IMG/VR virus record: IMGVR_UViG_3300036770_001537
Direction: 5' to 3' (one strand)
DNA from: a virus
Length of the DNA: 64,000 nt
Shown: positions 26,099-56,566 of the stretch, in pieces
How positions within the stretch are numbered: position 1 is the first letter of the stretch
Layout of the letters: every line of letters begins with the position of its first letter
Position numbers and translations under genes: made by a program
The notes under the pieces: model-generated
Told to the model about the DNA's origin: nothing
What the model saw: the letters and a program-made list of their open reading frames with translations, nothing else
Database searches by the model: none

Positions 26099-26623
26099 TT
26101 AAATTTCCGTTTTATTATGCTTTTGCAGATGCTGGTTTAAATTACCTTTGCCTCTACACAATTTACCGCAGACATTACATTCATATTTAGGAACTTTGTA
26201 TTGTGCAATTCTATCCAAATCTTTTTCTTCGTCTGTTTTGATACGACCTTTATTCCAAGGAATCTGTCCTATGTGACTCGTCCTCATTTTCTCTTTAGAT
26301 TCCTTTGTAAATTTATAACCAGTTAGTGGATGTCCTTTTGTTTTAAATCTTTTCTTTTGACTGATACCTATAGTTTTTCTGGTTTCATCACTTATAATTC
26401 TATTTTTCATATAGAGTCTTTGTACTTCTTTTATGGCTTCGGCAGAACTAATTTGACCAGATAGCATTTGCCAAGCAATTTTATCTTGCCAGTGACCTAA
26501 GTCCTCCCATAATTGCTTATGTAAAGCAGCATGTTCTTCTACAGTAACAGTGACGAGATTAGATGGGTCATCCGATCCACCCATATGTTTTGGTATGATA
26601 TGGTGCTTGTGATAAATAGTCAT
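26099..26623 (-). CDS. HNH homing endonuclease with NUMOD3-like repeats and C-terminal zinc finger
   Basis: HKHHIIPKHMGGSDDPSNLV..EEHAALH; PWNKG; CNVC..H. Confidence 0.88.
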   Translation of the reverse strand: MTIYHKHHIIPKHMGGSDDPSNLVTVTVEEHAALHKQLWEDLGHWQDKIAWQMLSGQISSAEAIKEVQRLYMKNRIISDETRKTIGISQKKRFKTKGHPLTGYKFTKESKEKMRTSHIGQIPWNKGRIKTDEEKDLDRIAQYKVPKYECNVCGKLCRGKGNLNQHLQKHNKTEI

Positions 26624-26690
26624 GGCTGGTGCTCCTTTCAGCATTAGAGTGGTTGGATGCTGGTAACATCGCGAACCACAACTATTTATA
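26624..26690 (-). promoter_or_regulatory. late promoter plus conserved structured 5' leader of HNH gene (copy 1)
   Basis: TATAAATA..GTGGTTcgcGATGttaccagCATCcAACCAC-TCTAA-TGCTgaaaggAGCA-CCAGCC-ATG; matches the copy at 56495-56566. Confidence 0.8.
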
Positions 26691-26695
26691 ATATA

Positions 26696-26959
26696 TCAAA
26701 TCTCTTTAGGTATAGTCCATCTCTTATTACCAATTGCTGTAGCACCAGGAGTCTTTGCTTTTATCTTTCCCAAGACATATTTCTGAAAATCATTTGACGG
26801 CTTGGTAATGCCAATGTTGGTGGGATCAGCAATGCTAACTTTTGAATATACTCGTTCCATTGTGGTATTTGTCTTTTCAAACTCTACCATCTCTGAAATA
26901 GTCATAGATAGTTCTACGACTTCACCTGTTTCAGTATTTTGATATGTATAGTTGGGCAT
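26696..26959 (-). CDS. FmdB-like small protein
   Basis: MPNYTYQNTETGE N-terminus typical of T4-like FmdB-family proteins. Confidence 0.6.
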   Translation of the reverse strand: MPNYTYQNTETGEVVELSMTISEMVEFEKTNTTMERVYSKVSIADPTNIGITKPSNDFQKYVLGKIKAKTPGATAIGNKRWTIPKEI

Positions 26960-26985
26960 TCAAATTCCTTTCATAATACTATTTA

Positions 26986-27543
26986 TCATTCTGTCATCCA
27001 CAACGGTGCTTCACGGTTGGTCCATTTGTGAAGATGTGATTTACCATGCTTGTAATAATTGCGGTAGTTCACGACAGAATCTTCTGAGATTATATATGAA
27101 TCATCCATAGCAGGTGGTGGTTGAGTGAAATTTGCGGGAGAGATATTGTTAGGAACATCTCGAAGAACACTAGCCATCGTTTCACACTTATGTTTCTTGC
27201 CGTAACGATAAGTGTATTCATCCAGTAGAGCAATGAAATGGTCATATAGCCAAACATAATTAGCAGTAGATTGACGACACCAAATAGCAGAAGGATGATT
27301 AACATGAGTTGCTGAATATAGAGCACTCTCACGATCATCATCCAATACCCAACGCTTTACATTTCGGTGCCTAATTGGAAGAGAACCATTAACGACTTTC
27401 TTTTCTACAGTCAGTTTGCCGTCAAGCACACGATGAGCAGTTGATAGAAGTTGGGCACTCTCAAGAATCATTTTAACACAGTGACTATTAACGAGACATT
27501 GAGCAGCAATAGTCGGGTTTTTATCTACATAGAAGACGTTCAT
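26986..27543 (-). CDS. pyrimidine-dimer DNA glycosylase family protein (DenV-like)
   Basis: MNVFYVD, HCVKMILESAQLLSTAH, THVNHPSAIW, EYTYRYGKKH, YRNYY. Confidence 0.85.
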   Translation of the reverse strand: MNVFYVDKNPTIAAQCLVNSHCVKMILESAQLLSTAHRVLDGKLTVEKKVVNGSLPIRHRNVKRWVLDDDRESALYSATHVNHPSAIWCRQSTANYVWLYDHFIALLDEYTYRYGKKHKCETMASVLRDVPNNISPANFTQPPPAMDDSYIISEDSVVNYRNYYKHGKSHLHKWTNREAPLWMTE

Positions 27544-27575
27544 TCTTGTGTTTCCTTTTCCGAGAATATGCCTTC

Positions 27576-27827
27576 TTATTTTTTACGACCTTTGGTTTGA
27601 ATGGAGTATCCTTCAGAAACAGAATCGCGGCACTCCGGGTTTTCCTTGGCTTCTTCATTTTGTTGCCTCAACTTCTTTTCTCTCAATCGACATTCCTTGA
27701 TAATAGCAGATCGTCTATCATCTGTAAACCATTTCCAGTGTTGAATTTCATCAATCATACGAAAGCACCCGGAACAATAATCTGTTCCAGGTGCCACCTT
27801 ACAAACTTTGATACATGGAGTAATCAT
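27576..27827 (-). CDS. DUF1289-family Cys-rich protein
   Basis: TPCIKVC....CSGCFRMIDEI..W. Confidence 0.8.
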   Translation of the reverse strand: MITPCIKVCKVAPGTDYCSGCFRMIDEIQHWKWFTDDRRSAIIKECRLREKKLRQQNEEAKENPECRDSVSEGYSIQTKGRKK

Positions 27828-28285
27828 CGGAGAAGATCACGAACGTCTTCAACTGCATCCCAATCAGATTCAACAGCATGAGCCTGCATAACAACTTCCG
27901 AAGAATCAGGCACTCCCAAAGAAGTCATATCCATAACGGGAGTATCATCTTCATCATCTTCTACCGAAGCAGCAACAGAAGCGGTAGCAGCAGTAACAAC
28001 AGCAGCAACAACCTTCTTCACCTTGTCGGGTTTATCCCACTGATTAAGATCAACATCCGAATCCTTGGTCATTGTGTAAGAAACAATCTTACGCCCAACC
28101 TTAGTTGCCTCAATTTCAAAGCCAAGTTCCTTTCGCATCGTATTCACAAACTTGGTGGCATACTTTGCGGTGAGAGCATCATTGATAGTATCAACATCAA
28201 GCGTTGCATTCTTGCGAAACATCTCAGCAATGATCTTGATATGCTTGATGCCCTGGCCCTTGAAAGTAGTAGCAGTCATTTTCAT
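27824..28285 (-). CDS. hypothetical early protein
   Basis: ORF with GGAG RBS directly downstream of an early promoter. Confidence 0.7.
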   Translation of the reverse strand: MKMTATTFKGQGIKHIKIIAEMFRKNATLDVDTINDALTAKYATKFVNTMRKELGFEIEATKVGRKIVSYTMTKDSDVDLNQWDKPDKVKKVVAAVVTAATASVAASVEDDEDDTPVMDMTSLGVPDSSEVVMQAHAVESDWDAVEDVRDLLR

Positions 28286-28337
28286 TTCTCCATTTCTCAT
28301 TGACGATGTAAGGATTATATCACACTTTAGTTCTAGG

Positions 28338-28577
28338 TCAAGCACTTTCTTTCATGTATTCGTAACTCCTCCGTTCGTCTGCCAGTTTGAGCAACTGAAT
28401 AACTTCGTCACTCTTCTTCTTATACTTTTTAGAAGTCATGACATACCGAACGGAACCTGCACACCAATTGTGATCAGCATACATGAGAGCCAAACGAACT
28501 TTCTTGGGCAAACGATCATAAGCATTCATAGACTGAGCAATGGAATACTTGGAAGCTTTTCCAGAAGAATTGTTCAT
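28338..28577 (-). CDS. hypothetical early protein
   Basis: Start MNNSS after the promoter cassette and GGAG. Confidence 0.7.
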   Translation of the reverse strand: MNNSSGKASKYSIAQSMNAYDRLPKKVRLALMYADHNWCAGSVRYVMTSKKYKKKSDEVIQLLKLADERRSYEYMKESA

Positions 28578-28640
28578 TTGGTGATCTCCCTTCCTCATCA
28601 TGTAGACATTATAGCACACTCAGCGAAGATGTCAAGCACT

Positions 28641-28952
28641 TTAATCCCACCAAAATTCAATAGTATTAGAATCAACCATACGAATTTCGGAAAACTTTGG
28701 TGCCATAAACATCATCGGTGAAATGAGCACTTCCACAACCGAGTATGCATTACGAAGATTGCCAATATCGATCTTTAGTGAACCATCCCAACGATCAGAA
28801 AGCATATTAGCAGCAAGCACTGTAATTTCTTCTCGGTCATGAAGCTCGACAATATGATTTAGGAGTTCAGGATTCCGAAACATACGATACTGCGAAAGGA
28901 TTTCCCGAACCTGTTCCGTAGCAATAGCAGTAGGCATTTGTTTCTCCATCAA
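28641..28952 (-). CDS. hypothetical early protein
   Basis: ORF coupled to its neighbour; ends FWWD. Confidence 0.65.
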   Translation of the reverse strand: MMEKQMPTAIATEQVREILSQYRMFRNPELLNHIVELHDREEITVLAANMLSDRWDGSLKIDIGNLRNAYSVVEVLISPMMFMAPKFSEIRMVDSNTIEFWWD

Positions 28953-29167
28953 AGGATTGCGAAAGGTTCATTCTCATCAACCAGAATATGAGTCCTCAAA
29001 TTCTTATTGTTGAAGACTCGAATCGGGCGGAACAATTCAACTGTATGTTGAACTGCACCACCATACTTTACACGAGAATCAACAACCTTTCCCATGTAAG
29101 GAGTCGAATCCAAATAAACACCACGAATTGTTTGTCCGGTACGATCCCAACCCATGATATTCTCCAT
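28949..29167 (-). CDS. hypothetical early protein
   Basis: GKVVDSRVKYGGAVQHTV; translationally coupled. Confidence 0.65.
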   Translation of the reverse strand: MENIMGWDRTGQTIRGVYLDSTPYMGKVVDSRVKYGGAVQHTVELFRPIRVFNNKNLRTHILVDENEPFAIL

Positions 29168-29463
29168 TAGCCGAAGGAACGAGCACTCTCAACTTCATCG
29201 GCAATCTCATCCCAGCATACTGCCCAGAGATCACCTACATGATGAAGATAAAACTTCCGACCATCAACTGTCATGCAGGCTTTATCAATTATCGCATACC
29301 AAGCATCCCAATACCATTCGTTGTCATGTGGACCATACGCAACACAAACAACATCAGGATCACCCACATCAAGACCCCATTGAGTCATATCGAAATCCTC
29401 AACGAAGTCCTTGGGAATGTAAATTCCACGAGAGTCTGCCAGAAGAAATTCCCGCGTGTTCAT
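29167..29463 (-). CDS. hypothetical early protein
   Basis: DSRGIYIP..YWDAW..GDLWAV; AGGAG RBS after cassette. Confidence 0.7.
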   Translation of the reverse strand: MNTREFLLADSRGIYIPKDFVEDFDMTQWGLDVGDPDVVCVAYGPHDNEWYWDAWYAIIDKACMTVDGRKFYLHHVGDLWAVCWDEIADEVESARSFG

Positions 29464-29516
29464 GAACAATCTCCTTTCCTCATCATGTAAACATTATAGC
29501 ACACTCAGCGAAGATG

Positions 29517-29756
29517 TCAAGCAGCAAGTTCCTTTGTAATCCTAAACTTCTCTGCCAGATCATCAAAGTCAACAAGGCTAATATCGACTGAGTGAATAAT
29601 CAAATCATGAGGGCTGTTCTTTAGAACCGGAAGTTCACTAATAATATCGTAAACATTTTCACCAGTCATTTCGTCCAGTTCAAGATTGTTAATCACTCCA
29701 GCAAACACAACCGAGAAGAGCCACGTTTCACGATTCGTATATCCATTGTAAGACAT
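29517..29756 (-). CDS. hypothetical early protein
   Basis: MSYNGYTNRETW N-terminus; AAGGA RBS. Confidence 0.7.
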   Translation of the reverse strand: MSYNGYTNRETWLFSVVFAGVINNLELDEMTGENVYDIISELPVLKNSPHDLIIHSVDISLVDFDDLAEKFRITKELAA

Positions 29757-29787
29757 TTTGATTTCCTTTGTTGAAGATCAGTCTGCT

Positions 29788-30168
29788 TTAGGCGACGAGC
29801 TTATAAGGTTTATTCCACTTGCCGACATTGATATTAACATACCAACCAACATCGAAATAGTCAACCTCAATTCGTGAATTGTTGTGGTTTCCAGTATTCA
29901 ATGCTTTGACTAGTTCCATAAGGAACTCTTTTACATCACCACTATAATGTTTATCGACATGATGTTCATTCACTTGAATATAATCTGAAACTTCTACATT
30001 TGTCGTATCTTTAAGATTTCTAATGAAATCAAGTTTACCGGATGAGATATTGCACACGATTGTGGAATGATGGTCTACAGCAAAGGTGGCTTTGACGCCA
30101 TACTTCTTGAGAATCGGCTTAGCCAAAGCAACAAGTTCAGCCTTTCGTTCTTGGTTCATATAAGCCAT
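29788..30168 (-). CDS. conserved phage hypothetical protein
   Basis: MAYMNQERK..DYFDVGWYVNINVGKWNKPY; GGAG RBS. Confidence 0.75.
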   Translation of the reverse strand: MAYMNQERKAELVALAKPILKKYGVKATFAVDHHSTIVCNISSGKLDFIRNLKDTTNVEVSDYIQVNEHHVDKHYSGDVKEFLMELVKALNTGNHNNSRIEVDYFDVGWYVNINVGKWNKPYKLVA

Positions 30169-30186
30169 GCTAAATCTCCAGAAAGT

Positions 30187-30260
30187 TGGCGAAGGTGGTA
30201 GGAATTGAACCCACATTTTCGGGTTTGGAAGCCGACGTGTTACCGTTACACTACACCGAC
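30187..30260 (-). tRNA. trnW: tRNA-Trp(CCA), atypical stems
   Basis: Cloverleaf GTCGGTG..loop TTCCAAA..GGTTCAATTCC..CACCTTC G CCA; two acceptor mismatches. Confidence 0.8.
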
Positions 30261-30264
30261 AGAA

Positions 30265-30411
30265 TTACCGAATCTTACGGCGGCGAGAAGGTTTGCAGAC
30301 AGTAACTTTCTTCTCACCAAACTTCTTCATCTCCTTTTCGATCAGAGCACGAGTATCAGCCTTGGACACAAGAGACTTATTCAGAACGATAGACTTTTGA
30401 ATCGCCGTCAT
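30265..30411 (-). CDS. small basic early protein (48 aa, not in ORF track)
   Basis: MTAIQKSIVLNKSLVSKADTRALIEKEMKKFGEKKVTVCKPSRRRKIR; GGAG RBS after cassette. Confidence 0.65.
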   Translation of the reverse strand: MTAIQKSIVLNKSLVSKADTRALIEKEMKKFGEKKVTVCKPSRRRKIR

Positions 30412-30476
30412 CAGCCATCTCCATCTCTCATCATGTGAACATTATAGCATACTCATAGAAGATGTCAAGAGGAAAA

Positions 30477-30692
30477 TTATTTAGTAAAATCAGAAAGTTG
30501 AGGCTTTGGGCCAAAGTATTTGCGGTGTTCTTCCCATGCCTCATACAACTTTTTATGAGAATCAGAAATTTCCATTATGCGACGAAACATCATATCCTTT
30601 TTATTGAAAAAAGACCAATCTTTATAATTACCGATCATATCATACATGAAATCGTGAGAACGAAGTTCGTCGTTGAATTGCTCCAGAGTCAT
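30477..30692 (-). CDS. hypothetical early protein
   Basis: Start MTLEQ after promoter and GGAG. Confidence 0.65.
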   Translation of the reverse strand: MTLEQFNDELRSHDFMYDMIGNYKDWSFFNKKDMMFRRIMEISDSHKKLYEAWEEHRKYFGPKPQLSDFTK

Positions 30693-30770
30693 ACGTGTTT
30701 CTCCATCTCTCATCGTTGAAACAGTATAGCACACTCACAGAAGAAGTCAACAACAAACTTCGCCTAGAAA

Positions 30771-31082
30771 TCAGAGGTAAGCAGCACCATAGGCACCGAG
30801 ACCCTTACCCCACGAATAATCGTCGTCAAAGACACTCCCGCGAATATGCTTGGCAGGAGCTTTCCACGATGCTGCCTTGAAGATATTACCATCGAAATCG
30901 AGGAAACAATATACCGACGCAGAACCGTGAGAGTTGTCAACAATCTTAATATACTTTCGACCGGGCTTGAACGTCAGAGTAACCTTAGAACCACGATCTT
31001 CAGAGCACTTCGCCTCAATGTGATTCAGAATAGCATCGAGAGAAAGCACTTCTTCATCTTTGACAAAGTGGATATTGGTCAT
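30771..31082 (-). CDS. conserved phage early protein
   Basis: GRKYIKIV..SVYCFLD..GNIFKAASWKAPAKHIRG. Confidence 0.75.
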   Translation of the reverse strand: MTNIHFVKDEEVLSLDAILNHIEAKCSEDRGSKVTLTFKPGRKYIKIVDNSHGSASVYCFLDFDGNIFKAASWKAPAKHIRGSVFDDDYSWGKGLGAYGAAYL

Positions 31083-31133
31083 CTGATTTCCTTTCCTCAT
31101 CATGTGAATATTATAGCACACTTAGCGAAGATG

Positions 31134-31505
31134 TCAAGCAATAAATTTCTGCTTTTTACGAATTGTATACCACTCCCCAGTTTCTTCATTCAGCACACAC
31201 CAATCTTCAGCCACATTTTTGAAAAGAATAATGTATGTAGGATCGAAATACACATCAAACAGAGCATCATCGATCATAATGGAATACTTCTTGATGCGAG
31301 TATAATTATCTTCTGCATCATCACCAAGAAGAATTGAAAGTTCATACCTATCTTTTTCAAGATCAGGAGTAACTGGATTGAGGTGTGCGAAGAAACTTTC
31401 CTGCCAGTAACCCCAATTCATATTGGGATTCACTTTGTGAAGAAGAATATCAGCAATAGAAGATGCTTTCAGCACATTGACGAGATCGTTGATAGTAACT
31501 TTCAT
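31134..31505 (-). CDS. hypothetical early protein
   Basis: ORF with AGGAG RBS. Confidence 0.65.
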   Translation of the reverse strand: MKVTINDLVNVLKASSIADILLHKVNPNMNWGYWQESFFAHLNPVTPDLEKDRYELSILLGDDAEDNYTRIKKYSIMIDDALFDVYFDPTYIILFKNVAEDWCVLNEETGEWYTIRKKQKFIA

Positions 31506-31535
31506 TGTGATATTCTCCTAGTTGATTGACAATCT

Positions 31536-31709
31536 TCAGTTACAGAAATGCCAACTCAAATTAACGCCAGAAGCATAACCAACCAAATCACCATCCTTGA
31601 AAACAGAAAACTCAAAGCCTCGATTTTTACCAAACTCAATTGCTTCTCCGAGAGAGTCGAAAACATCGTCAGAGTAGTAACCGAAGTTCGCGAAATAAAT
31701 CTCATACAT
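31536..31709 (-). CDS. hypothetical early protein
   Basis: Start MYEIYF after promoter and AAGGA. Confidence 0.6.
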   Translation of the reverse strand: MYEIYFANFGYYSDDVFDSLGEAIEFGKNRGFEFSVFKDGDLVGYASGVNLSWHFCN

Positions 31710-31776
31710 AAGAGCATCCTTTCTCAAGAGCATGGGAGTATATTACACACTCCCATGCTAGTTGTCAAGAGGAAAA

Positions 31777-32409
31777 TTACTGGAACGTACGTTCCATTAC
31801 CATATCGATTTCCTCAATCACGTCAGACATAATCAGTGCCCTATCGGGCTCTTCGAAATCAACGCGAACGCAATTGTATTCCCAAACCCAAACCATATCC
31901 TTGTGATTCTTGAAAACCTTTCCGTTCTTAATAACTTCGACCATCTCATCAGAAGTAGCAACACCAAGTTTGATGGCAGTGCCACGACGATAACCATAGC
32001 CGTTAGACTGTTCGAGCATAACAACAACTTTGCCAGTCGTGTTCTTCGGAACCTTACGGCCCTTCACAACCTTAACTTGGCAGCCTTTCTCAATTCGAGT
32101 ATTCCGAGAAAGAGCATCATTCAAACGCTTATCAAAAAGCATCTTGATAAGATACGTCTTGTAAGCAAGTTTCACAGCATCAGTGGCATCAACTTCCGCA
32201 TGGGAGTTGGAGCACCAATCATAATCGGATACACGAACAATAACAGTCTTGGGCTGGTTCTTCTCAGAATCCCAGACAATGGCTTCGTCAGCAGAACCCC
32301 AAACATCAGACATGATCCGATACGAAACATTCCGAAGAACCTGGAGAACGTGACCGACGTATTCAACAGACTTCACAGAACCATCACGATTCAGAAAATG
32401 GACTGCCAT
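31777..32409 (-). CDS. hypothetical early protein (KOW/SH3-like VKVVKGRKVP)
   Basis: ORF downstream of promoter cassette. Confidence 0.7.
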   Translation of the reverse strand: MAVHFLNRDGSVKSVEYVGHVLQVLRNVSYRIMSDVWGSADEAIVWDSEKNQPKTVIVRVSDYDWCSNSHAEVDATDAVKLAYKTYLIKMLFDKRLNDALSRNTRIEKGCQVKVVKGRKVPKNTTGKVVVMLEQSNGYGYRRGTAIKLGVATSDEMVEVIKNGKVFKNHKDMVWVWEYNCVRVDFEEPDRALIMSDVIEEIDMVMERTFQ

Positions 32410-32474
32410 GAGGTGTTCCTTTCATCAGCGTGAGAGTATAATAACACATCCGTAGAAGAAGTCAAGAGGAAAAA

Positions 32475-32762
32475 TTAGTCATCATACTGTACGTGCTTTT
32501 TAATTACCCACCGTTCAACAACCCATCGTCCGTTCTCGTCCTCATCAACAATGACGTGAACGGCGGTTTTAAGAACAAGTGCCTTTCGTACTTCTGTACC
32601 AGAAGGCCCAACAAAAATCAAGTGGGGAAATTCTACATTTTTTCCACCATGAGCCTTGGGCGAAAGAACCATATCAGGATTCTTCGCATATTCAAATACA
32701 TTATTATCGACAGTAAACCGACCTTGAACCTTGTAACCTTGGTTATACGGAGCGAAAGCCAT
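32475..32762 (-). CDS. hypothetical early protein
   Basis: GGAGG RBS; promoter upstream. Confidence 0.7.
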   Translation of the reverse strand: MAFAPYNQGYKVQGRFTVDNNVFEYAKNPDMVLSPKAHGGKNVEFPHLIFVGPSGTEVRKALVLKTAVHVIVDEDENGRWVVERWVIKKHVQYDD

Positions 32763-32838
32763 AGAAAACCTCCCTGTCTCAATGACAAGTAGATAGTAGC
32801 AAATTCACAAACCCTCGTCAAGAGGAAAATTCCCAAGC

Positions 32839-33162
32839 TCAACGCACATCGGTATTGAGCTTGGGCTTCAGATCACGAATCAACTGACGTTCAACATCGT
32901 GTGCCGCAGTTTTACCACGAACAACTTCGATAATCTCTACCGTGAAAGCATCTGGGCCATACTTACGAATGGCTTCACACAGCTTCCACGTCCTGTTTTC
33001 TGTCATAGCACGTTGGACGTGTTTCAGCCAACGTCTACGGAGAGATTTGACCGGAGAACCATTCTCTACATGAGTCATGCCAATATATACCATTGACTTG
33101 ATCTGAATCTTGTAGATCAGATGGTTCCGGTCAGAGCGTTTTTTCCGTCGTTTCGTCATCAT
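32839..33162 (-). CDS. small GIY-YIG-like nuclease
   Basis: LIYKI..VYIGMT, RWLKH, AIRKYG..F, E..LI..LN. Confidence 0.75.
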   Translation of the reverse strand: MMTKRRKKRSDRNHLIYKIQIKSMVYIGMTHVENGSPVKSLRRRWLKHVQRAMTENRTWKLCEAIRKYGPDAFTVEIIEVVRGKTAAHDVERQLIRDLKPKLNTDVR

Positions 33163-33245
33163 GCAAGCATTATAGCACATCCATCATGCTTGTCAATCAC
33201 TTTTTTGCATGACAGATATACTAAAAATGCATAACTAAACGGTTA

Positions 33246-33425
33246 TTATTTTGTATTATAGAAATCTTCTAAATCATCATAACTATGCTGAATTTTGTCC
33301 CATTCTTTTTTCCAGTTTTTATTCTTTCTTTTCTTTTCTGTACTTTTAGTTTTTAATGGTTCATCATCGTAATATTCATTATCATAATTATGGTTGATTT
33401 TCTTAGATGTATTTCTATGTTTCAT
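33246..33425 (-). CDS. small charged protein (59 aa, not in ORF track)
   Basis: Manual translation MKHRNTSKKINHNYDNEYYDDEPLKTK... Confidence 0.5.
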   Translation of the reverse strand: MKHRNTSKKINHNYDNEYYDDEPLKTKSTEKKRKNKNWKKEWDKIQHSYDDLEDFYNTK

Positions 33426-33449
33426 GAATAAAACCTTTTGTCCTTTCTG

Positions 33450-33875
33450 TTATGCTAGAATATCTGGAAATGCTTCTTTCACAATTCCATAAGTTAAGCC
33501 TTTTACGGCATTCTTTTTCTTGCGAATCATATTAGCAAAAACCTCTGCTTCTTTTGATTCGAGAGATTCGAGTAACTGAATGAGAAGTTGTTCCCTTCGT
33601 CTCATAGTTAGATTTGGAGATGCCCTTGGATCATCTTTTACGAATAGATATACCTTCTTCATTTCTTGGTGCAGGTTATTATAACCTAATCCTGGTGGTG
33701 CTCCTGATGATTTATATGGTGGCACATCATCAAATACAAACTGTACGTTGGGATCGAACATACCTTTCAATACACTTTTGAGTGCATATGATTGATTGAA
33801 CTGTAGAACCAGAACTCGATCTTTTGCAGTTTTTGCGTTTGCCACCTCATCAAAGATTTCATAGATGTTTTTCAT
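33450..33875 (-). CDS. conserved T4-like protein downstream of rnh
   Basis: IYEIF..RREQLLIQLLESL..EAE..GLT...VKEAFP. Confidence 0.75.
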   Translation of the reverse strand: MKNIYEIFDEVANAKTAKDRVLVLQFNQSYALKSVLKGMFDPNVQFVFDDVPPYKSSGAPPGLGYNNLHQEMKKVYLFVKDDPRASPNLTMRRREQLLIQLLESLESKEAEVFANMIRKKKNAVKGLTYGIVKEAFPDILA

Positions 33876-33884
33876 TGTTGTTCC

Positions 33885-34736: not shown

Positions 34737-34779
34737 GACACATTCTCCATTAGTTATTGTTCACAACAGTATATATGAG

Positions 34780-35118
34780 TCATTCGTCGGTGTCAAGGTC
34801 TTCCAGTGAGTCAAGAGGAATAATATTGACGGATTCATCGATAAACTGATGAAATTCGTGCTTCAATTCTAATGAACGATAAATCAATGCTGATAGAATG
34901 CCGGTTAGGAACATGAAATCCTTTCCAAAGTCATCCTTCTCAATATCCAAACCATAGTTAGATAGTTCATGTAGCATGTTTGATGTCATGTCCTGAACCA
35001 GAATATCTGCAAAGTTTTGAATGCCCTTCTCCTTCATTTTCTCGACCATATCTTGAGTGAATGAAGGATTGTGGCGAACGATCTTTTCGGTAGGGAAACT
35101 TAGAATGTTATCGGTCAT
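34780..35118 (-). CDS. hypothetical protein
   Basis: ORF starting MTDNILSFP; coupled. Confidence 0.7.
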   Translation of the reverse strand: MTDNILSFPTEKIVRHNPSFTQDMVEKMKEKGIQNFADILVQDMTSNMLHELSNYGLDIEKDDFGKDFMFLTGILSALIYRSLELKHEFHQFIDESVNIIPLDSLEDLDTDE

Positions 35119-37088: not shown

Positions 37089-37092
37089 TTCA

Positions 37093-47726: not shown

Positions 47727-47729
47727 TAA

Positions 47730-48197: not shown

Positions 48198-48212
48198 GGT
48201 GCTATCTTTCTA

Positions 48213-48821: not shown

Positions 48822-48855
48822 TTCTTGTTACTCCTTGAGTTTTAGTTTTATATAT

Positions 48856-49122
48856 TTATCTGCTTTGTCCCACGAGGTCTTCTTTTTCAGGATTGACAGT
48901 AATAGTGTCTGCTGATGTATGTGGGACTACTTTTTCTTTCTTTTTAGTATCTGTATTAGCATCACCATTCATGTTGCCATCTTCGGCAACAAGACTTCTT
49001 TTCATCTTTCTACGATAACGAGGCTTCCTGGGCATTTCGGAACCTCCACGCCCAAGAAGTGCTTCATTTACTTTCTCTTTAGCCATCTCTTTGATGAGAG
49101 ATACAAGTTTTGACGTTTTCAT
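48856..49122 (-). CDS. putative capsid-internal protein
   Basis: MKTSKLVSLIKE; coupled. Confidence 0.6.
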   Translation of the reverse strand: MKTSKLVSLIKEMAKEKVNEALLGRGGSEMPRKPRYRRKMKRSLVAEDGNMNGDANTDTKKKEKVVPHTSADTITVNPEKEDLVGQSR

Positions 49123-50417
49123 TATGCTCCACCGCCACCAGTAATACCTGAGAAATCACCTCTTGTTGCTCTTGAAAAAGAGGATGATGATTTTCTTTCT
49201 GGTGCTTGTCTAACAGACCTAGTGGTGGATGGTTCACTTGCAAAAGGACTGCCGCTTCCTCCATCACCAACTCTGCTCCAGTCAGGTTTTGAATCTTGAC
49301 TTGATGTTGCTGGTGCTGCTGGTTTTGGTGCAGTTGCTGGTCTTGCTGCTTGTTTTGCCGCTGGTGTTGCAGGTGACACACCAGTTTCTAAATCTTTACT
49401 AGGTTCACCCTGAATAGATGCAGAAGGCATTGGTCTTGGTGTAACATTTGATGGAACATCTAACATTCCAGGGGTGGATTTTGCTGAATTTGCAGACGCC
49501 CCAAGACTGTTTTGTGTTGATGTTGGTGCACTTGGATTATTGGGCCTAACACCTAAATTTGGTGTTATTCCCATTTGACCTAAAGATGTCGGTCTTGTAG
49601 GTGTTGTTTTTGGATCACCAAATGCACCATAATTTTTAGATGTTGCACCATAATTATATGTTGTTGGTGCCTTTGTGGGATTTGATGGATCATTGCCATC
49701 TGCTGGCTGAGGTCTAGAGCCTTCTCCATATTTACCTAAAACTCTTGCTCTAAAACTCTGTCTCCATGTCATATTTTCAGTGTTACCGAATACTTCACTC
49801 AAAATTCCTCTTTCTTCTTCACTCAATGTATCATAAGCATATTGTGCTGCTTGCTCACCATATGTTTCATATACAGAATTTAGTTTCTCAAGGAGATTAT
49901 TTCTAATTTCTTCATTAAGAGAATCAAATGATTCGTCCATTTTCTTTTTAGACAAACCGGCTTGACTCAAAGCAATAGCAACTGCTTGTTTCTGTCCTTT
50001 TTTAGTTACAGGAACAGTCTTATCTGATTTGCCGATATGCTCTTTACCTTTTTTCCATTTATGCATAACCTTGGCAACTTTTTCTTTTTGTGCTTCTGTT
50101 GCCTTGGCTTCTTCAAGTGTTTTGTCTTTACGAAGTTTAGCAAGATCGGCCGCCTCAATCTCGTCTTTATCACCTGCTTTTGCAGCCAATTTCTTTTGCT
50201 TAGGAGAAAGTTCTTTATCATCATCTTCTTCATACATACATTTCTTGGCTTCTTCAAGCATAGCGTCATATTTACCATGTAGTTCGTGTGGCAATGCTTT
50301 CTTGGAATGGACCCCAAACGCTTCATTTACACTTTTAAGGGCTTCTCTTTCCTTTTCATTTTGCTCCATAATCTTTTTGACTGCATCCACTAATGGATCT
50401 TTTTTGTTGTTGAACAT
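49122..50417 (-). CDS. putative prohead core/internal protein with repeated LxE sites
   Basis: LSPKQKKLA..DKDEIEAADLAKLR and QAVAIALSQAG modules; P/S/T-rich tail. Confidence 0.7.
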   Translation of the reverse strand: MFNNKKDPLVDAVKKIMEQNEKEREALKSVNEAFGVHSKKALPHELHGKYDAMLEEAKKCMYEEDDDKELSPKQKKLAAKAGDKDEIEAADLAKLRKDKTLEEAKATEAQKEKVAKVMHKWKKGKEHIGKSDKTVPVTKKGQKQAVAIALSQAGLSKKKMDESFDSLNEEIRNNLLEKLNSVYETYGEQAAQYAYDTLSEEERGILSEVFGNTENMTWRQSFRARVLGKYGEGSRPQPADGNDPSNPTKAPTTYNYGATSKNYGAFGDPKTTPTRPTSLGQMGITPNLGVRPNNPSAPTSTQNSLGASANSAKSTPGMLDVPSNVTPRPMPSASIQGEPSKDLETGVSPATPAAKQAARPATAPKPAAPATSSQDSKPDWSRVGDGGSGSPFASEPSTTRSVRQAPERKSSSSFSRATRGDFSGITGGGGA

Positions 50418-50514
50418 AGATAGATTCCTTTTGATAGAAAAATGTTGCTGTTTATATTTATTATTCTTCGCAATTCCATTTTCTCAAGGACTTATTGATC
50501 CTTGAATCCTGGGC

Positions 50515-50925
50515 CTAATTGTTGCGTTCTTTTAAATATTTTATTGCAGATTCCAAATTTTTTATATTATCTTTAAAATTGCCAAGCCCTCTATTACAAT
50601 GATGACACAACATACCTCTGAATTTTCCAGTATCGTGATTGTGATCCATTACTAAATTATATACTTTCCCTAAGTGTTTGTTATTTCTTGACCCGGAATT
50701 TTCGGTTCCCCCACATATATCACAGTTAATTTGTTTTCTAAGATTTCTAACTTCATCATCAGAAAGTTGTCCTCTAAATTTTCCTCTATTAATTTCACTT
50801 CTATACGAGGCTCTACATTTTCTACACCAACTATCCAATCCGTCTAATTTTTTATTGTGTGGTGGAAAATGTATTAAATCTTTTGGTTTTTCTTCTTTAC
50901 ATCTAGTGCAATTTTTAATAGACAT
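50515..50925 (-). CDS. endonuclease VII-like homing endonuclease
   Basis: CTRC..CRKC, CDIC, DHNHDTGKFRGMLCHHCNRGLGNFKD. Confidence 0.88.
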   Translation of the reverse strand: MSIKNCTRCKEEKPKDLIHFPPHNKKLDGLDSWCRKCRASYRSEINRGKFRGQLSDDEVRNLRKQINCDICGGTENSGSRNNKHLGKVYNLVMDHNHDTGKFRGMLCHHCNRGLGNFKDNIKNLESAIKYLKERNN

Positions 50926-50958
50926 GAATACATTCCTTTTTCATTACAAATATATTTA

Positions 50959-52821
50959 TTATTCACAGTTCCACTTTCTTAATGCTAGGGCTTTTCTAGT
51001 GGGCCTGCCTTTTTCATCTTTCATAGGACCACGAGCACCACCCATCCTCGCACAAAATGATTTACGTCGTTTCCATGCCTTGGAACCGGGCTTTAATTTA
51101 GAAGGTTTGGTTGTTACAGCAGTTTGTAGTTTGGAACCTGGATTTGCTCGTCTGTATGAGGCAACACCTTTCTTATTAAGTCCACCTTCAGGGTCTTTTC
51201 CTTCTTTTCTTTGCCAAGCAGGTGATGCTTCTGATAATTCTCTATCTGTTCCTTGTTTGGGTACAGTTCCCATTTGAGCGTAGTCTTGTAGTTCTTTTAG
51301 GTGCTTTTGGAATGTCTCTCTTGCTTTTTCAGCCAGTGTGCCAAATGGATATGAATATCCTGTTCCAAGAGAACTTTGAATGCCTGCACCAAATCCAGAA
51401 ATACCTGAATAACGATTACCGAACTCTGGTCCAATAGTATCACTTGATGGTAATGTATATGGAGTGTTATACATATCAAGTGTTGAGCCTAATAGCCCAT
51501 CTTCAGTGAGTTTCTTTCTCACAATCTTCTTCTTGGGCTTTTCTTCAAATAAAGGATTGAATGGAAATGTTTGACCGGGTGTTGCATCAGCATAAATTTT
51601 GGTCAATGATGTCTTGCCCCATTCTCTATCAGATGGTGTGTTTTCATTCAAGAAATCATCAAAACTTTCATTGACTGATTTCCAACCACCACCTTTTGAT
51701 TTATACCATTTTGCCGCCCAACCATTGGCATATGCAGATGGATATACATCAAATTTTTGTTTTGCCATTGATTTGGCTCTTGCCCACAATTCAGGATTTG
51801 TTGGCTTGTTTTTTTCCATTAGATATTCTTCTGTCGCAACAAAAACTGGCTTTCCGCCTTTACCTTTTCTATCTGCCACTGGGTCTTTCCTTCTTTTTCT
51901 TCTTGCTGATTTTGCTCTTTCTTCCTTGGACATTGCCCGTGCAGATGCTAATGGCCTACATTTTGGTTTACCTTCACCGGGTTCACGGGCACATTGACCT
52001 TTGATATTACCTTTGGTATCAAACCTGACCCATTTTTCTTTGAACCATTTACGAAGGTCTTCGTTGATATCTGTTTCTTCTACCATATGTTTGAGTGAGA
52101 ATTTATCTGGATTGGCACGACCATACCATCTCATAATCTGACCTGCCATTGCATTTGCTTCATTTTCAATGTCAGAACCAGTTTCACCTTCTTTGGCAAC
52201 ATCCTTGATTCTACCGTCTTCATCCTGCTTACAATGAACCAACTCATGTGCTACGGTACGAAAAATATCCATTGGATGGCGGTTTTTAGTCACTACGACA
52301 ATTGACTTTTCGGATGGAGAATATCCACCAAAACTGGTGAAGTTTTCTTCTGCGTCTTTATATTTTAATTTTGGAAGGGATTTGATGCCAAGTTTTTCGG
52401 AAGCAAATGATACAAATGAATCTAGCATTGGACTAAAGTCTTGGTGATTGATTTCTTCGTTTAGATTATTATAATCATGTGCTTTCTTGACCAAATCAAG
52501 AATTGGCAAATCTACCATAAATGCTCTGGTTGAACCTGTAGTATTGTGGTCGGCAATCCAACGATGGTGCCCGTCAAGTATGTGTGAATCTCTTGAAATT
52601 ACTATTGGCGATTTCTTTTCTTTAGTATGCATCATCTGTAGAACTTTCATATCATCAAAGTCTGCTTGAGTAGATTTGAGAGATGATGTATCAAAGTCTT
52701 TTTCTGTGAAGTCTATACCTTCATCTTTTAACTTTTGAACGAATGCTTTGGAATCTGCCAATTGTGGCATCAACTGTCTACTTAAAGTCTGTCCTATTGC
52801 TGGAATTTCTATCTTTTTCAT
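50959..52821 (-). CDS. modular protein: ParB-like + zincin HEXXH + basic modules
   Basis: ILDGHHRW; RTVAHELVH..ENEANA; LRKWFKEKWV; FDVYPSAYAN; RRKSFCARM..ALRKWNC. Confidence 0.75.
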   Translation of the reverse strand: MKKIEIPAIGQTLSRQLMPQLADSKAFVQKLKDEGIDFTEKDFDTSSLKSTQADFDDMKVLQMMHTKEKKSPIVISRDSHILDGHHRWIADHNTTGSTRAFMVDLPILDLVKKAHDYNNLNEEINHQDFSPMLDSFVSFASEKLGIKSLPKLKYKDAEENFTSFGGYSPSEKSIVVVTKNRHPMDIFRTVAHELVHCKQDEDGRIKDVAKEGETGSDIENEANAMAGQIMRWYGRANPDKFSLKHMVEETDINEDLRKWFKEKWVRFDTKGNIKGQCAREPGEGKPKCRPLASARAMSKEERAKSARRKRRKDPVADRKGKGGKPVFVATEEYLMEKNKPTNPELWARAKSMAKQKFDVYPSAYANGWAAKWYKSKGGGWKSVNESFDDFLNENTPSDREWGKTSLTKIYADATPGQTFPFNPLFEEKPKKKIVRKKLTEDGLLGSTLDMYNTPYTLPSSDTIGPEFGNRYSGISGFGAGIQSSLGTGYSYPFGTLAEKARETFQKHLKELQDYAQMGTVPKQGTDRELSEASPAWQRKEGKDPEGGLNKKGVASYRRANPGSKLQTAVTTKPSKLKPGSKAWKRRKSFCARMGGARGPMKDEKGRPTRKALALRKWNCE

Positions 52822-52831
52822 TTTTGTTCTC

Positions 52832-53497
52832 TTATAAGGTTACAGTGATACCATCTTTGTTGTTTGGTCTAATAGTAATATTGTCTATATCATATACACG
52901 AAGCACATCTGCTTTCTTGAACTCTGGATTGAACTTGACCTTCCCTTTGGACTTTACCATCAAATAGATTTCTTGGTTCTCAGCATATTCTTCACTTTCA
53001 ACCAGAAATCCGTCAAAGGTAAGTAAATTCTGTTTCCTCTCAAATGATCCAGTACCATTACCAACATATATGTAATCAATAGGTCCGCCCATAGACTGTG
53101 TGCCGACAATCAATGTCTTTTTCTCAATTCTACCAATCTTACCATATACTATTTCAGGTATATTATCATCTTCTGATAGCCCCATACCAAGAACTTTGGC
53201 AACCAAAGCATTTTCAAATTTTCTAGTCAAGTTTGGCGTCATCAAATCAATAGCATTCTTACCAATATTCACTGAAGATATTACATCTTCCTGTAGAGAA
53301 ATTTTGATACTCTTGGCATTATTATCAAGTATTATATCGGTGTATAATTTAGAAGAACCAAACTGCCTGCCATTGTATTTTCGGGCACGAATGATTCTAT
53401 CTAAATTCACATCACCAATCTTCACCATTATTACTCTATAGTCTGAAGCAGATATTGCATTATTTACTTCATCTTTAAATGTCTCTAGTTTATCCAT
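52832..53497 (-). CDS. hypothetical protein
   Basis: Long ORF in operon; weak degenerate PD-(D/E)XK-like pattern. Confidence 0.65.
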   Translation of the reverse strand: MDKLETFKDEVNNAISASDYRVIMVKIGDVNLDRIIRARKYNGRQFGSSKLYTDIILDNNAKSIKISLQEDVISSVNIGKNAIDLMTPNLTRKFENALVAKVLGMGLSEDDNIPEIVYGKIGRIEKKTLIVGTQSMGGPIDYIYVGNGTGSFERKQNLLTFDGFLVESEEYAENQEIYLMVKSKGKVKFNPEFKKADVLRVYDIDNITIRPNNKDGITVTL

Positions 53498-53927
53498 TTT
53501 TTATTGAGTTTAGCATCCAACCGTGTTTGGCATGTACTGTTAATCTGTCTTGAATGAAATTAGAGTATGCAAATGCCTTTTCTTTTTCTGCCATCTCGTA
53601 TGTTTCTGTCAGAGTAGCGATGACCATATCATTTGATTTTATTAGATTATTTATCATATCATCAAAAGAAACTACTTTTGTGTCTTCAGGAATAGTAGAT
53701 AGTTCTCTAATTCTTGCTAGAGAAAATGGTGCAAACGAATTTAGCGTTCTAATCTGCTCTGCTAGATCATCAATTGCATCATGTAGTTCTTCATATAGTT
53801 TACCGAAGAATTTGTGATACTGTGGGAAATTAGGGCCAACAACATTCCAATGGTATGCATGTGCCCTCATATACATTACAAAAGTATCAGCCAAACAAAT
53901 CTTGGCATTAGTAATTAGATCATCCAT
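53490..53927 (-). CDS. dps: Dps/ferritin-like DNA protection protein
   Basis: HAYHWNVVGPNFPQYHKFF..YEE....DDLAEQIR, HAKHGWML. Confidence 0.93.
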   Translation of the reverse strand: MDDLITNAKICLADTFVMYMRAHAYHWNVVGPNFPQYHKFFGKLYEELHDAIDDLAEQIRTLNSFAPFSLARIRELSTIPEDTKVVSFDDMINNLIKSNDMVIATLTETYEMAEKEKAFAYSNFIQDRLTVHAKHGWMLNSIKNG

Positions 53928-54108
53928 CGTCTTTTCCCCATTTTCCTATTGGACATTCTGATGACTTCATTAGTGTTTTGTAGTTCATAAAACATCCACA
54001 TTTGTTACATCTCATATGACTCGTTAAATGCTCACATTGTTTGCATATCTCAAGTCTCTTTTCGGATAGTTCTTTTGCTCTTGTAAATACGGTGTCCAAC
54101 TTTATCAT
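53920..54108 (-). CDS. small Cys-rich protein
   Basis: RLEICKQC..CNKCGCFM..K....CPIGKW. Confidence 0.75.
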   Translation of the reverse strand: MIKLDTVFTRAKELSEKRLEICKQCEHLTSHMRCNKCGCFMNYKTLMKSSECPIGKWGKDDG

Positions 54109-54410
54109 TAGCCACCTTTAGTGTAAATTTCTTGTTCCGATTCTTTTTGTCTTTTGGGTCTATACATAGACTTCAACTTCTTTTCTGCTACTCTACAGGC
54201 ATCACGCAATTTGCTGTAGTCCGAAAGCATCATAGATAGTTGAGATTCATTTGGTAGCATATCCAATTCAATTGCTGCTTGTGCTAATTGTTCTCTGCTA
54301 TAGTTTTTGAGAACAGGGCATCTACTCATAATTGTTTGTTCTTGTGCTGCTGATAGTGTCACGCATCCAGTTAGTGGTAACACGAGCAATAGTGGTATGA
54401 TTTTTTTCAT
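54108..54410 (-). CDS. lipoprotein, probable o-spanin
   Basis: Signal peptide with lipobox LTGC; two further Cys. Confidence 0.6.
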   Translation of the reverse strand: MKKIIPLLLVLPLTGCVTLSAAQEQTIMSRCPVLKNYSREQLAQAAIELDMLPNESQLSMMLSDYSKLRDACRVAEKKLKSMYRPKRQKESEQEIYTKGG

Positions 54411-54637
54411 TAGAATGTTCCATCCTTCATTTTATCTATCACTTCTTTTTTAGTTCTCTCTTGAACCAATATTTCAGTTTGCTGCCTATTCAATTCATTT
54501 TCCTTGGCAACAATCTCCGCTTCCTTTTGTTTCCTACCCTGTTCAATTAATTTTTTCATTTTGAGTATTTCTAGGACTTTTGAGAATGAATTTGCAGCAC
54601 CGCTCAAAAATCCTAGAAGTAAAGATAGAAATGACAT
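54410..54637 (-). CDS. probable i-spanin-like protein
   Basis: N-terminal hydrophobic anchor plus coiled coil; TAATG-coupled to the lipoprotein. Confidence 0.5.
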   Translation of the reverse strand: MSFLSLLLGFLSGAANSFSKVLEILKMKKLIEQGRKQKEAEIVAKENELNRQQTEILVQERTKKEVIDKMKDGTF

Positions 54638-54640
54638 ATC

Positions 54641-54835
54641 TTATGCCGAATCATCCGTTGAAGATACTCCAGGTGGTGTAGTTGTGATTGAACGAAGCAC
54701 TGCCATGATAATAGCAGAACCTAGAGCAACTGCACCTGCTTTTGGATCACTTAGAAAAGCATTCCAGTCTGTCATTGCAAGAACGCCAAACAATGCCATT
54801 AGTGCTGATACTACGTATGTACGATAACCTTTCAT
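54641..54835 (-). CDS. probable holin (2 TM)
   Basis: MKGYRTY..two TM helices..LRSITTTP; GGAGG RBS; late promoter 54873-54880. Confidence 0.6.
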   Translation of the reverse strand: MKGYRTYVVSALMALFGVLAMTDWNAFLSDPKAGAVALGSAIIMAVLRSITTTPPGVSSTDDSA

Positions 54836-54899
54836 AATTTACCTCCAAATTTAGGCATAATGCCTTTGCTTATATTTATAGTAATTGAATTTTAGACAT

Positions 54900-54927
54900 A
54901 AAAAAAGGGTGGGAAAATCCCACCCTT
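54900..54927 (-). terminator. rho-independent terminator
   Basis: AAGGGTGGGAtttTCCCACCCTTTTTT on minus strand. Confidence 0.85.
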
Positions 54928-54948
54928 CTCAAGAAATAACCAATAGAC

Positions 54949-55866
54949 TTATTCAGTCTTTGGTGCTTCTGCTACTGGTTCAGCAACAACTTCTGGTGTT
55001 ACATCAAATGCTTCTTTGACTGCATCAACAACATCAACATTTGCTTCTGCTTTTACTGCTTCGGCAACTTCTGCTGGTGCAGTTACTACAACATCGACTT
55101 GGCCTTCATCAGTTTTGATTACATCAGCAACAACGTCTTCTTCTGTTACTGTGGTATCATCTGCTGGTGTTACTGTAACAACTACTTGTGGTTCTGCTGA
55201 AGTTGTATCAACTGTATCAACTACTGTTTCTGCTGATACTGTTACGACTTCTGGCATAACTTCTGGTAGATTTACCTGAACTGTTGGTACTGTTGGATCA
55301 TCTGCGTGTAGGATTACTTCTTTTGTTGGAATAACATTTGAAGAATCTGCAACTGCTCCGGCAAGTGCATCAGTAGATGATTTTAGTTGTTCGATAAGAG
55401 CATTAAGTGGTGCTGTATCAATTACAGGTGGTTCTTGTGCTGCTTTTGCAGCAAGTTCGGCAGATACTTTCTCAAGTTCTACTGTGAGTTTCTTGAGCAT
55501 TGTTGCGGCAGATGATTGCACAGTATGAACTCGTGCTACTTCTGCGGCTAGTGTTTCTAGATTAAGTTCCATATTTTTAACCCTTTCCTCTAATACATAT
55601 ATCTTGTATAACATCTCTTCAAACTTTTCTTGAATCTTAATGTCCGACTCAAGAATACTTTTTATTGCAGCATCCTTACATTCTTTACACTGAGGAGTAC
55701 ATGCAATGCAAATTTTGTTGCCCATAGATTTTACCGTATCTAAAATGAAAATCATGAATGACAATATTAGTCCAAATAATTTTTTCCAGAATCTAATGAA
55801 TAGTTTTTTTTGAAGGGCAAATGCTAATGTCCAAAATAGAATGGCTGATGCCCAATATTTTTTCAT
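54949..55866 (-). CDS. membrane-anchored acidic protein with probable second in-frame start at 55572
   Basis: Hydrophobic N-terminus; purine-rich RBS before MELNLE; late promoter 55894-55901. Confidence 0.6.
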   Translation of the reverse strand: MKKYWASAILFWTLAFALQKKLFIRFWKKLFGLILSFMIFILDTVKSMGNKICIACTPQCKECKDAAIKSILESDIKIQEKFEEMLYKIYVLEERVKNMELNLETLAAEVARVHTVQSSAATMLKKLTVELEKVSAELAAKAAQEPPVIDTAPLNALIEQLKSSTDALAGAVADSSNVIPTKEVILHADDPTVPTVQVNLPEVMPEVVTVSAETVVDTVDTTSAEPQVVVTVTPADDTTVTEEDVVADVIKTDEGQVDVVVTAPAEVAEAVKAEANVDVVDAVKEAFDVTPEVVAEPVAEAPKTE

Positions 55867-55918
55867 GTGGAATCCATTGTGCTGTTGCACAACTATTTAT
55901 AATACTTGAGTTTTGATA

Positions 55919-56494
55919 TTATAAATTTCTTCCTTTATACCAGCCTAATGGTATAGTTTCGCATTTTTTTATTTTTTTATTAGTTATCCCATCCGTAATC
56001 CACATTGTACCATATTGAGAATTTTTGATTCCTTGTTGATGTTTATTTTTTGCGAACTGCGACTTTCTAATATTTCTATATTCAGGGTCTTTCCACTTTT
56101 CAAGTAAAACTAGATTATTCTTTTCTAGTGTTTTCAATTTCTGTTTTTTAAACTCTTCATCGGTTTTGTATTTTTCTATGTATGCCTTTATGCCGGATTT
56201 TTGCCATTTTTCTAAATATATTTTTCTATATTCTAAATCAGTATTAAATTTATTTTTATGTATCATGCCGCCTTTTTTACCGCCCATAGACATTGCCATT
56301 AGTGCTGCTTCTTTTGATGATATTAATCCTTCAAGTCCCATCCAAGCAACATAATCTTGCCAGTGTCCTAAGTCTTCCCATAATTGTTTATGTAAAGCAG
56401 CATGTTCTTCTACAGTTACTTCAATAAGATTGGATGGATCGTCTGTTCCACCCATATGTTTAGGTATGATATGATGTGTGTGATAAATAGACAT
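55919..56494 (-). CDS. HNH homing endonuclease
   Basis: HTHHIIPKHMGGTDDPSNL..EEHAALH; C-terminal NSQYGTMWITDG..GWYKGR. Confidence 0.88.
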   Translation of the reverse strand: MSIYHTHHIIPKHMGGTDDPSNLIEVTVEEHAALHKQLWEDLGHWQDYVAWMGLEGLISSKEAALMAMSMGGKKGGMIHKNKFNTDLEYRKIYLEKWQKSGIKAYIEKYKTDEEFKKQKLKTLEKNNLVLLEKWKDPEYRNIRKSQFAKNKHQQGIKNSQYGTMWITDGITNKKIKKCETIPLGWYKGRNL

Positions 56495-56566
56495 GGCTGA
56501 TACCTCCATTATAGGTGTTAGAGTGGTTAGATGCTTCCAACATCGTGAACCACATTTTTATTTATA
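56495..56566 (-). promoter_or_regulatory. late promoter plus conserved structured 5' leader of HNH gene (copy 2)
   Basis: TATAAATA..GTGGTTcacGATGttggaagCATCtAACCAC-TCTAA-cACCTataatggAGGT-aTCAGCC-ATG. Confidence 0.8.

Follow-up and report, generated by a model that had tools for sequence, protein, structure and literature searches.

We analyzed a 64,000-nucleotide (nt) stretch of viral DNA, IMG/VR virus record IMGVR_UViG_3300036770_001537, which we call the window. It carries two genes for HNH homing endonucleases, each standing behind a noncoding leader with a late-promoter box and two hairpins, and this leader is the subject of the present report. Both genes and their leaders are on the minus strand. 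HNH1 (26099-26623) is an open reading frame (ORF) of 174 amino acids that begins MTIY; Pfam recognizes an N-terminal HNH domain in it, followed by a C-terminal part composed of NUMOD3 and a C2H2 zinc finger (zf-C2H2). HNH2 (55919-56494), an ORF of 191 amino acids that begins MSIY, has the same N-terminal HNH domain and an unrelated C terminus, in which no Pfam domain was recognized. An earlier note on this DNA had claimed that the two proteins have a nuclease N terminus in common and differ in their C termini. Indeed, they are about 85% identical across the first ~62 residues, with no relation after that. At the DNA level, an identity of about 85% runs from the late-promoter box of each gene, TATAAATA, to about codon 57, and the sequences are unrelated farther on.

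The sense box of HNH1, TATAAATA (26683-26690, minus strand), is identical to the box before many minus-strand genes of the window. Between it and the start codon lies a leader (26624-26682, minus strand) with a bulged hairpin, P1 (26649-26679), the sequence TCTAA, a hairpin that flanks the Shine-Dalgarno (SD) sequence, P2, and CAGCC. HNH2 is arranged in the same way, with a sequence match to the box TATAAATA at 56559-56566 and a leader at 56495-56558 (both on the minus strand) made up of P1 (56523-56553), TCTAA, P2, and CAGCC. P1 reads GTGGTT-C(G/A)C-GATGT-loop-GCATC-(C/T)-AACCAC in both copies and is bulged. The 4 bp of P2 are formed by TGCT/AGCA in copy 1 (HNH1) and by ACCT/AGGT in copy 2 (HNH2), followed by CAGCC-ATG. 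The distance from TATAAATA to the ATG is 59-64 nt in the two copies, with the late promoter immediately upstream of the endonuclease gene. A 36-nt degenerate leader pattern has two matches in the window, both of them these leaders, with 0 expected by chance. The HNH1 sense leader folds at -16.3 kcal/mol (z score, -1.5). The layout described in the earlier note, a late box, two hairpins, TCTAA, and overlap with the SD, is thus present in both copies. Its further claim that the structure is always in the transcript needs a correction. T4 late transcription starts 6 nt after the box. Since P1 begins merely 3 to 5 nt past the late box, under this rule the transcript does not wholly contain P1 in copy 1, where the start falls 2 nt into the P1 stem (minus strand); in copy 2, it falls at the first base of P1.

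A search with the HNH N terminus returned 80 IMG/VR loci, about half of which have this leader, with stem sequences that differ. We aligned 32 distinct leaders by MAFFT with no structure imposed and then used a covariance model, R1. In the MAFFT alignment, 90.6% of the cells pair, compared to 65% after shuffling and 35 to 48% when the partners are slid, and 138 cells changed on both sides. R1 scores the leaders of HNH1 and HNH2 at 75.3 and 63.5 bits, respectively, and finds about 188 copies in IMG/VR contigs, 164 of them distinct, with 1 to 13 per phage record. The bulged C-N-C motif of P1 is conserved in the family, and a sense box, (N)ATAAATA or CTAAATA, is present throughout. The covariance-model search that the earlier note had proposed thus bears out its view of a conserved and covarying structure, with compensatory changes across these ~188 copies. 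Since such changes occur among the 164 distinct copies, recent duplication is ruled out as the sole cause. The statement that this is not a named family also stands: a search of Rfam 15 with both leaders on both strands gave no match at gathering thresholds or at E values up to 10, and what scored did so at a chance level of ~13 bits.

We found no description in the literature of the covariation of this module (the promoter, the leader, and the first codons), of its opposite-strand fold, or of its embedded promoter, both of which are presented below. R1 found no module in eight cultured phages (S-SRM01, S-SKS1, S-PM2, Aeh1, HTVC008M, Mosig, Melnitz, and Syn19), and blastn with a typical leader gave no match in 50,697 phage records. 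Prokaryote assemblies produced 69 pattern matches, approximately the number estimated for chance; 12 of these, on 11 contigs, fit R1. Most of the 11 contigs are short and were binned into metagenome-assembled genomes from unrelated phyla, and several of the bins bear lake-type names; we therefore read the 12 copies as misbinned phage DNA and set aside an occurrence in bacterial genomes. A loose scan on the noncoding parts alone returned chance matches for the most part, and R1 was applied afterwards as a filter. The module is widespread in uncultured T4-like phages and undescribed as a family. Some copies have high R1 scores with no ORF or a very short ORF behind them [L235:1191-1260(-), L248:4548-4616(+), L313:1838-1906(+), and L170:1428-1498(+)]. 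These may be remnants, with the module outlasting a nuclease gene that has decayed.

The conserved fold forms better on the strand opposite the nuclease genes. Read on the sense strand of 109 distinct copies, the non-Watson-Crick cells comprise 13 G.U and 87 A.C. Since a sense A.C is a G.U on the other strand, the 87 A.C cells favor folding of the opposite strand. Pairing rises from sense to antisense in P1 (96.2 versus 98.5%), in P2 (85.7 versus 96.6%), and above all in the TCTAA:YCAG extension (67.7 versus 99.8%). On the sense strand, nothing pairs with the invariant TCTAA and CAGC; on the antisense strand, they lengthen the SD hairpin to 8 to 9 bp, with an invariant G.U. When sequences are folded singly, the minimum free energy averages -19.2 kcal/mol for antisense versus -14.0 kcal/mol for sense, with antisense the better of the two in 160 of 164 copies, and the composition-controlled z scores are -2.2 and -1.2, respectively. 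For the antisense strand, de novo prediction by RNAalifold on 60 copies gives both hairpins, with 19 pairs and -21.85 kcal/mol, and for the sense strand it gives P1 alone, with 10 pairs and -13.52 kcal/mol. In the antisense alignment, 97.8% of the cells pair, 16 of the 19 pairs covary, and none of 500 shuffles reaches the observed value on any of five measures. The plus strand of both window copies folds into two adjacent hairpins, followed by a U-rich tail. These data establish a conserved, stable secondary structure on the antisense strand: the RNA fold of the module is selected on the strand opposite the nuclease gene.

A candidate promoter for an RNA from that strand lies inside the gene. 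Nearly all proteins encoded behind the leader begin M-x-I-Y. Across unrelated nuclease families, codon 2 is NNT, encoding any of 13 amino acids, and ATT at codon 3 and TAT at codon 4 are found in 153 and 158 of 164 copies, respectively, counts that are inflated by the way most copies were collected (see below). In a scan that left the coding part out of the selection, the exact TATTTAT is found in 10 of 15 copies and the TAAATA core, on the other strand, in 13 of 15. Within codons 2 to 4 (NNT ATT TAT), TATTTAT reads as ATAAATA, the late-promoter core, on the complementary strand, so these codons would make up a second late promoter facing the first. In HNH1, the late-promoter-like box, GATAAATA, lies on the plus strand at 26611-26618 and is made by codons 2 to 5 (ACT ATT TAT C); in HNH2, the same box is at 56482-56489 on the plus strand, inside codons 2 to 5. 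ATAAATA occurs 26 times on the minus (gene) strand of the window and 6 times on the plus strand. Two of the six plus-strand occurrences are those in codons 2 to 5 of the HNH genes, and the other four precede plus-strand ORFs. Of 151 family members, 39 have a box of the GATAAATA type as their sense box, and AATAAATA is likewise common as a sense box. At the level of sequence, then, each gene has what a cis-antisense RNA calls for, a putative opposite-strand promoter within the 5′ end of its target.

The leader is not specific to HNH genes. In the scan of noncoding parts combined with R1, it heads genes for GIY-YIG endonucleases, HNH_3 and other HNH types, and a TnsA-like endonuclease, as well as proteins with NUMOD3 or I-TevI DNA-binding domains alone and several families without a Pfam match. 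These amount to at least five nuclease families, which rules out an HNH-specific leader. Conversely, the leader is absent from 38 of the 80 loci that encode this HNH domain, where the protein starts MKHKHH and has no T-I-Y. The portable unit is therefore the leader rather than the leader plus the HNH domain. The earlier note had proposed that promoter, RNA, and HNH domain travel as one mobile unit. The leader does travel with a nuclease gene; the unit as the note drew it does not fit the range of nucleases behind the leader or the leaderless HNH loci. That the leader travels is seen at the HNH1 locus itself, where 78 of 80 related contigs are empty, with orf87 followed directly by phoH and no insert. 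In the window, the module and HNH1 lie between orf87 and phoH, beginning 5 nt past the orf87 stop codon. The ends of this insertion polymorphism can be read from the minus strand at 26099-26110 and 26696-26707: HNH1 ends ...GAAATTTAA TTGAGTAA, and orf87 ends ...GAGATTTGA. At empty sites, orf87 itself ends ...TAA TTGAGTAA. The 3′ end of the insert is thus a copy of the displaced orf87 end (E-I-stop), which makes the junction at the stop codon precise. Two abundant families encoded behind the module have no Pfam match [examples are L233:7683-8446(-) and L238:249-1030(-)]; proteins of one family begin M-x-IYYLYVKTHNITGLKYLGQT..., those of the other begin M-x-IY..PYTYLIGWS....YYGVRYAK..., and both families resemble divergent nucleases of the GIY-YIG type.

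These results shift the interpretation from an HNH-linked mRNA leader to a general homing endonuclease module with a conserved RNA that is probably antisense. We consider it reasonably probable, judging from the sequence, that two facing late promoters bracket a cis-antisense RNA of ~65 to 75 nt that would hold the nuclease down. The portable module would then be a ~90-bp unit consisting of (N)ATAAATA, a spacer of 3 to 8 nt, ~60 bp of structured DNA, and ATG-NNT-ATT-TAT. By the T4 rule of a start 6 nt past the box, the antisense RNAs would start at 26624 and 56495, the base beside each start codon. In such an RNA, the first hairpin, P2′, would have 8 to 9 bp with the invariant G.U and present an anti-SD sequence at the junction of stem and loop; the second, P1′, would have 11 bp and two bulged G residues; and the 3′ end would be the U-rich complement of the sense promoter. 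The predicted antisense RNA 1 (~67 nt) would extend over 26624-26690 of the plus strand, with a P2′ of 8 bp (26626-26647), P1′ (26649-26679), and a U-rich tail; its predicted fold has -20.1 kcal/mol (z score, -2.0), with the anti-SD at the P2′ stem/loop junction. The predicted antisense RNA 2 (~74 nt) would occupy 56495-56568 of the plus strand, with a P2′ of 9 bp (56497-56521), P1′ (56523-56553), and the tail AUUUUUAUUUAUAU, and is predicted to fold at -19.6 kcal/mol (z score, -2.2).

Since the antisense RNA would be fully complementary to the 5′ leader of the nuclease mRNA, including the SD, it would be expected to pair with it, probably beginning with a loop-loop contact. The resulting duplex would block ribosome binding, make a substrate for RNase III, or both, and the level of the nuclease would stay low. 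The variability of the loops would be more in line with antisense pairing specific to each copy than with a protein code specific to each locus. A bolder proposal, to which we give a small chance, starts from copies that reside in the same phage; these differ for the most part in stems and loops, so that each antisense RNA would be specific for its own nuclease. The antisense RNA might then be a diffusible, copy-specific immunity factor in mixed infection, silencing an incoming allele of the same nuclease or timing cutting versus replication, and would in this way regulate how phages compete by homing. Under the same proposal, the module could, in addition, be a recombination handle that gives new nuclease genes their expression signals.

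Several points weigh against the antisense RNA. Termination after P1′ is uncertain, since 3 to 5 nt separate P1′ from the U-rich tract and the tract is interrupted by an A; a simple terminator scan did not call P1′ and its tail as a terminator. Most copies of the family come from a pattern scan that required NNTATTTAT, and this inflates the counts for codons 3 and 4 (153 and 158 of 164). No cultured phage carrying the module was found among the eight tested with R1 or in the phage collection searched by blastn. The opposite-strand box could have been retained as an A/U-rich mRNA element or because it pairs with the sense promoter in a read-through RNA. The latter would amount to a T4-type mask: in RNA that reads through from upstream, the late box pairs with codons 2 to 4 (a helix we call P0) and buries the start codon, while transcripts from the gene's own promoter, without the 5′ arm, are translated. 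We regard this as possible though somewhat doubtful, and it can coexist with an antisense RNA in the same module. Masks of this kind, hairpins that sequester the ribosome binding site (RBS) and are combined with late promoters, are documented for the T-even homing endonuclease genes (HEGs) I-TevI, I-TevII, I-TevIII, segB, and Aeh1 mobE (PMC2988022), and Dassa et al. (2009) noted one for leaders of GIY-YIG and Vsr endonucleases in marine metagenomes (PMC2677866). In the read-through RNA of copy 1, the box and the codons form a 16-bp P0 that takes in the AUG. Across the family, extension of P0 past its 7-bp core is slightly above that of permuted pairings (0.86 versus 0.60; 1 of 1,000 permutations). 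In most copies, however, P0 is merely 7 A-U pairs around a structured insert of ~60 nt, and it is not formed in copy 2. It also leaves unexplained the covarying inner hairpins, the asymmetry of G.U and A.C, and the invariant TCTAA and CAGC. A conserved I-TevI-style upstream arm that pairs with the SD is not a family feature, since there is no general upstream anti-SD arm (mean z score, -0.15; copy 2 alone, -2.1). Copy 2 does have such an arm: the 17 nt upstream of its promoter (56567-56583) are complementary to the SD region at 56500-56515 (minus strand), giving 13 bp in the read-through fold (duplex z score, -2.1). This amounts to a mask in the style of I-TevI that is not shared by the family at large.

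The hairpins could also act in the nuclease mRNA itself, as a protein operator, an SD-sequestering translational switch, or a 5′ stabilizer. The SD is within P2, P1 is at the 5′ end of the late transcript, and the bulged C-N-C motif is conserved, all of which such a role would account for. Yet sense P2 has 4 bp and is often mismatched, with a closing pair of C.A in 37 of 109 copies; RNAalifold predicts no P2 on the sense strand, and the sense fold is the weaker one in 160 of 164 copies. The leader is also common to at least five unrelated nuclease families, which makes binding by the nuclease itself unlikely. The operator, switch, or RNA cofactor suggested in the earlier note is thus weakened by a structure that is markedly better on the opposite strand, and we judge a role in the mRNA to be unlikely. 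Alternatively, the element could have no function in RNA and work as DNA, for example as a cruciform, a recombination hotspot, or a cassette junction. In keeping with this, the module is shuffled among nuclease families and is bracketed by an inverted repeat, and the promoter/stem-loop (PeSL) cassettes of T4-type phages, which consist of an early sigma-70 promoter plus a terminator and flank ORFs of hyperplastic regions, have been proposed to mediate modular shuffling (PMC4122927, PMC2839356). A signal in DNA, however, predicts no preference between G.T and A.C, and the 13 versus 87 observed, together with an invariant wobble, makes this reading very improbable. PeSL cassettes and the module are alike in being repeated, portable units of promoter plus stem-loop in T4-like genomes; they differ in the type of box, which is late in the module, and in the link of the module to nuclease genes. 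The mark of a PeSL cassette, a terminator stem-loop joined to an early sigma-70 promoter, was not found in the region, where sigma-70-like matches are at background.

The module has much in common with the T-even HEG hairpins: a late promoter before a free-standing nuclease gene, an RNA structure around the RBS, a promoter box complementary to sequence near the start codon, and a nuclease apparently kept low or late. Unlike them, it is a single covarying family that spans many nuclease families, folds on the opposite strand, and has a second promoter-like box in codons 2 to 4. R1 gave no match in Aeh1, the carrier of mobE; T4 itself was not searched. Another related case is that of the conserved 5′ untranslated region (5′-UTR) hairpins that Dassa et al. 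described with GIY-YIG and Vsr endonucleases in a study of "fractured genes" in marine metagenomes; ten of them contain TATAAATA, and they have two complementary conserved motifs (PMC2677866). Like the module, they are upstream of free-standing endonuclease genes on T4-like phage fragments. The available text of that paper contains no analysis of covariation or strand and no opposite-strand promoter, in which it differs from the present work. These hairpins may be the same family or a sister family. A precedent for an antisense RNA over the 5′ part of a homing endonuclease gene is CfrI of the T4-like cyanophage S-PM2, which is coexpressed with that gene (Millard et al. 2010, as cited in PMC2984593 and PMC5931967). 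According to these citing accounts, CfrI was detected experimentally; it differs from the predicted RNA of the module in its length of ~225 nt and in being antisense to psbA as well. We rejected CfrI as the same RNA, since the sole R1 match in S-PM2 has an E value of 0.3 and lies inside an unrelated coding region. RNA-OUT of IS10, which acts on RNA-IN, is a short, stable, bulged stem-loop antisense RNA transcribed from a promoter within the 5′ end of the gene, and it limits the transposase. In both systems, a potentially harmful mobility enzyme is the target, and the RNA (predicted for the module) is complementary to its translation initiation region; the module differs in having phage late promoters rather than sigma-70 promoters, two hairpins, and homing endonucleases in place of a transposase.

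If the antisense interpretation is correct, the module would represent a large uncatalogued RNA family, with hundreds of copies and up to 13 per genome, and would show how T4-like phages of lakes and oceans restrain their many selfish nucleases. It would likewise offer a clear example of how a promoter in codons 2 to 4 dictates the N terminus, M-x-I-Y, of unrelated proteins. The module marks true start codons, and it points to likely homing endonucleases among unknown proteins, several of the families behind it being without a Pfam match. It merits an Rfam entry, built on the correct strand.

The phage that carries the two genes is T4-like, with a gp6 baseplate wedge protein, PhoH, and a class II ribonucleotide reductase. 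Among cultured phages, those nearest to it are HTVC008M and Mosig, both of Pelagibacter, and Melnitz, of Methylophilales, with ~38 to 40% identity in gp6. On the minus strand at 21915-22298, it encodes a circularly permuted tmRNA of the alphaproteobacterial type, with a TATAAATA box just upstream (22264-22271); the type of this tmRNA gives a hint that the host is an alphaproteobacterium. The gene downstream of HNH2 has a late promoter (55840-55901, minus strand) with the extended start TATAAATAGTTGTG, as in the HNH1 module, followed by a short hairpin (GTGCAACAGCAC); the R1 match there is weak, at a chance level of 12.6 bits. Directly upstream of the HNH2 module, at 56585-56663 on the minus strand, is a sequence resembling a tRNA, with a score of 33 bits in the tRNA model of Rfam. 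Its acceptor stem has 7 bp, the T-arm is good, CCA is encoded, and the anticodon loop has UCU, but the D-arm spans only 5 nt, the variable region contains a 19-nt insert, and ARAGORN leaves the sequence uncalled. This could be a tRNA-Arg that is decayed or unusual, located beside a homing endonuclease insertion.

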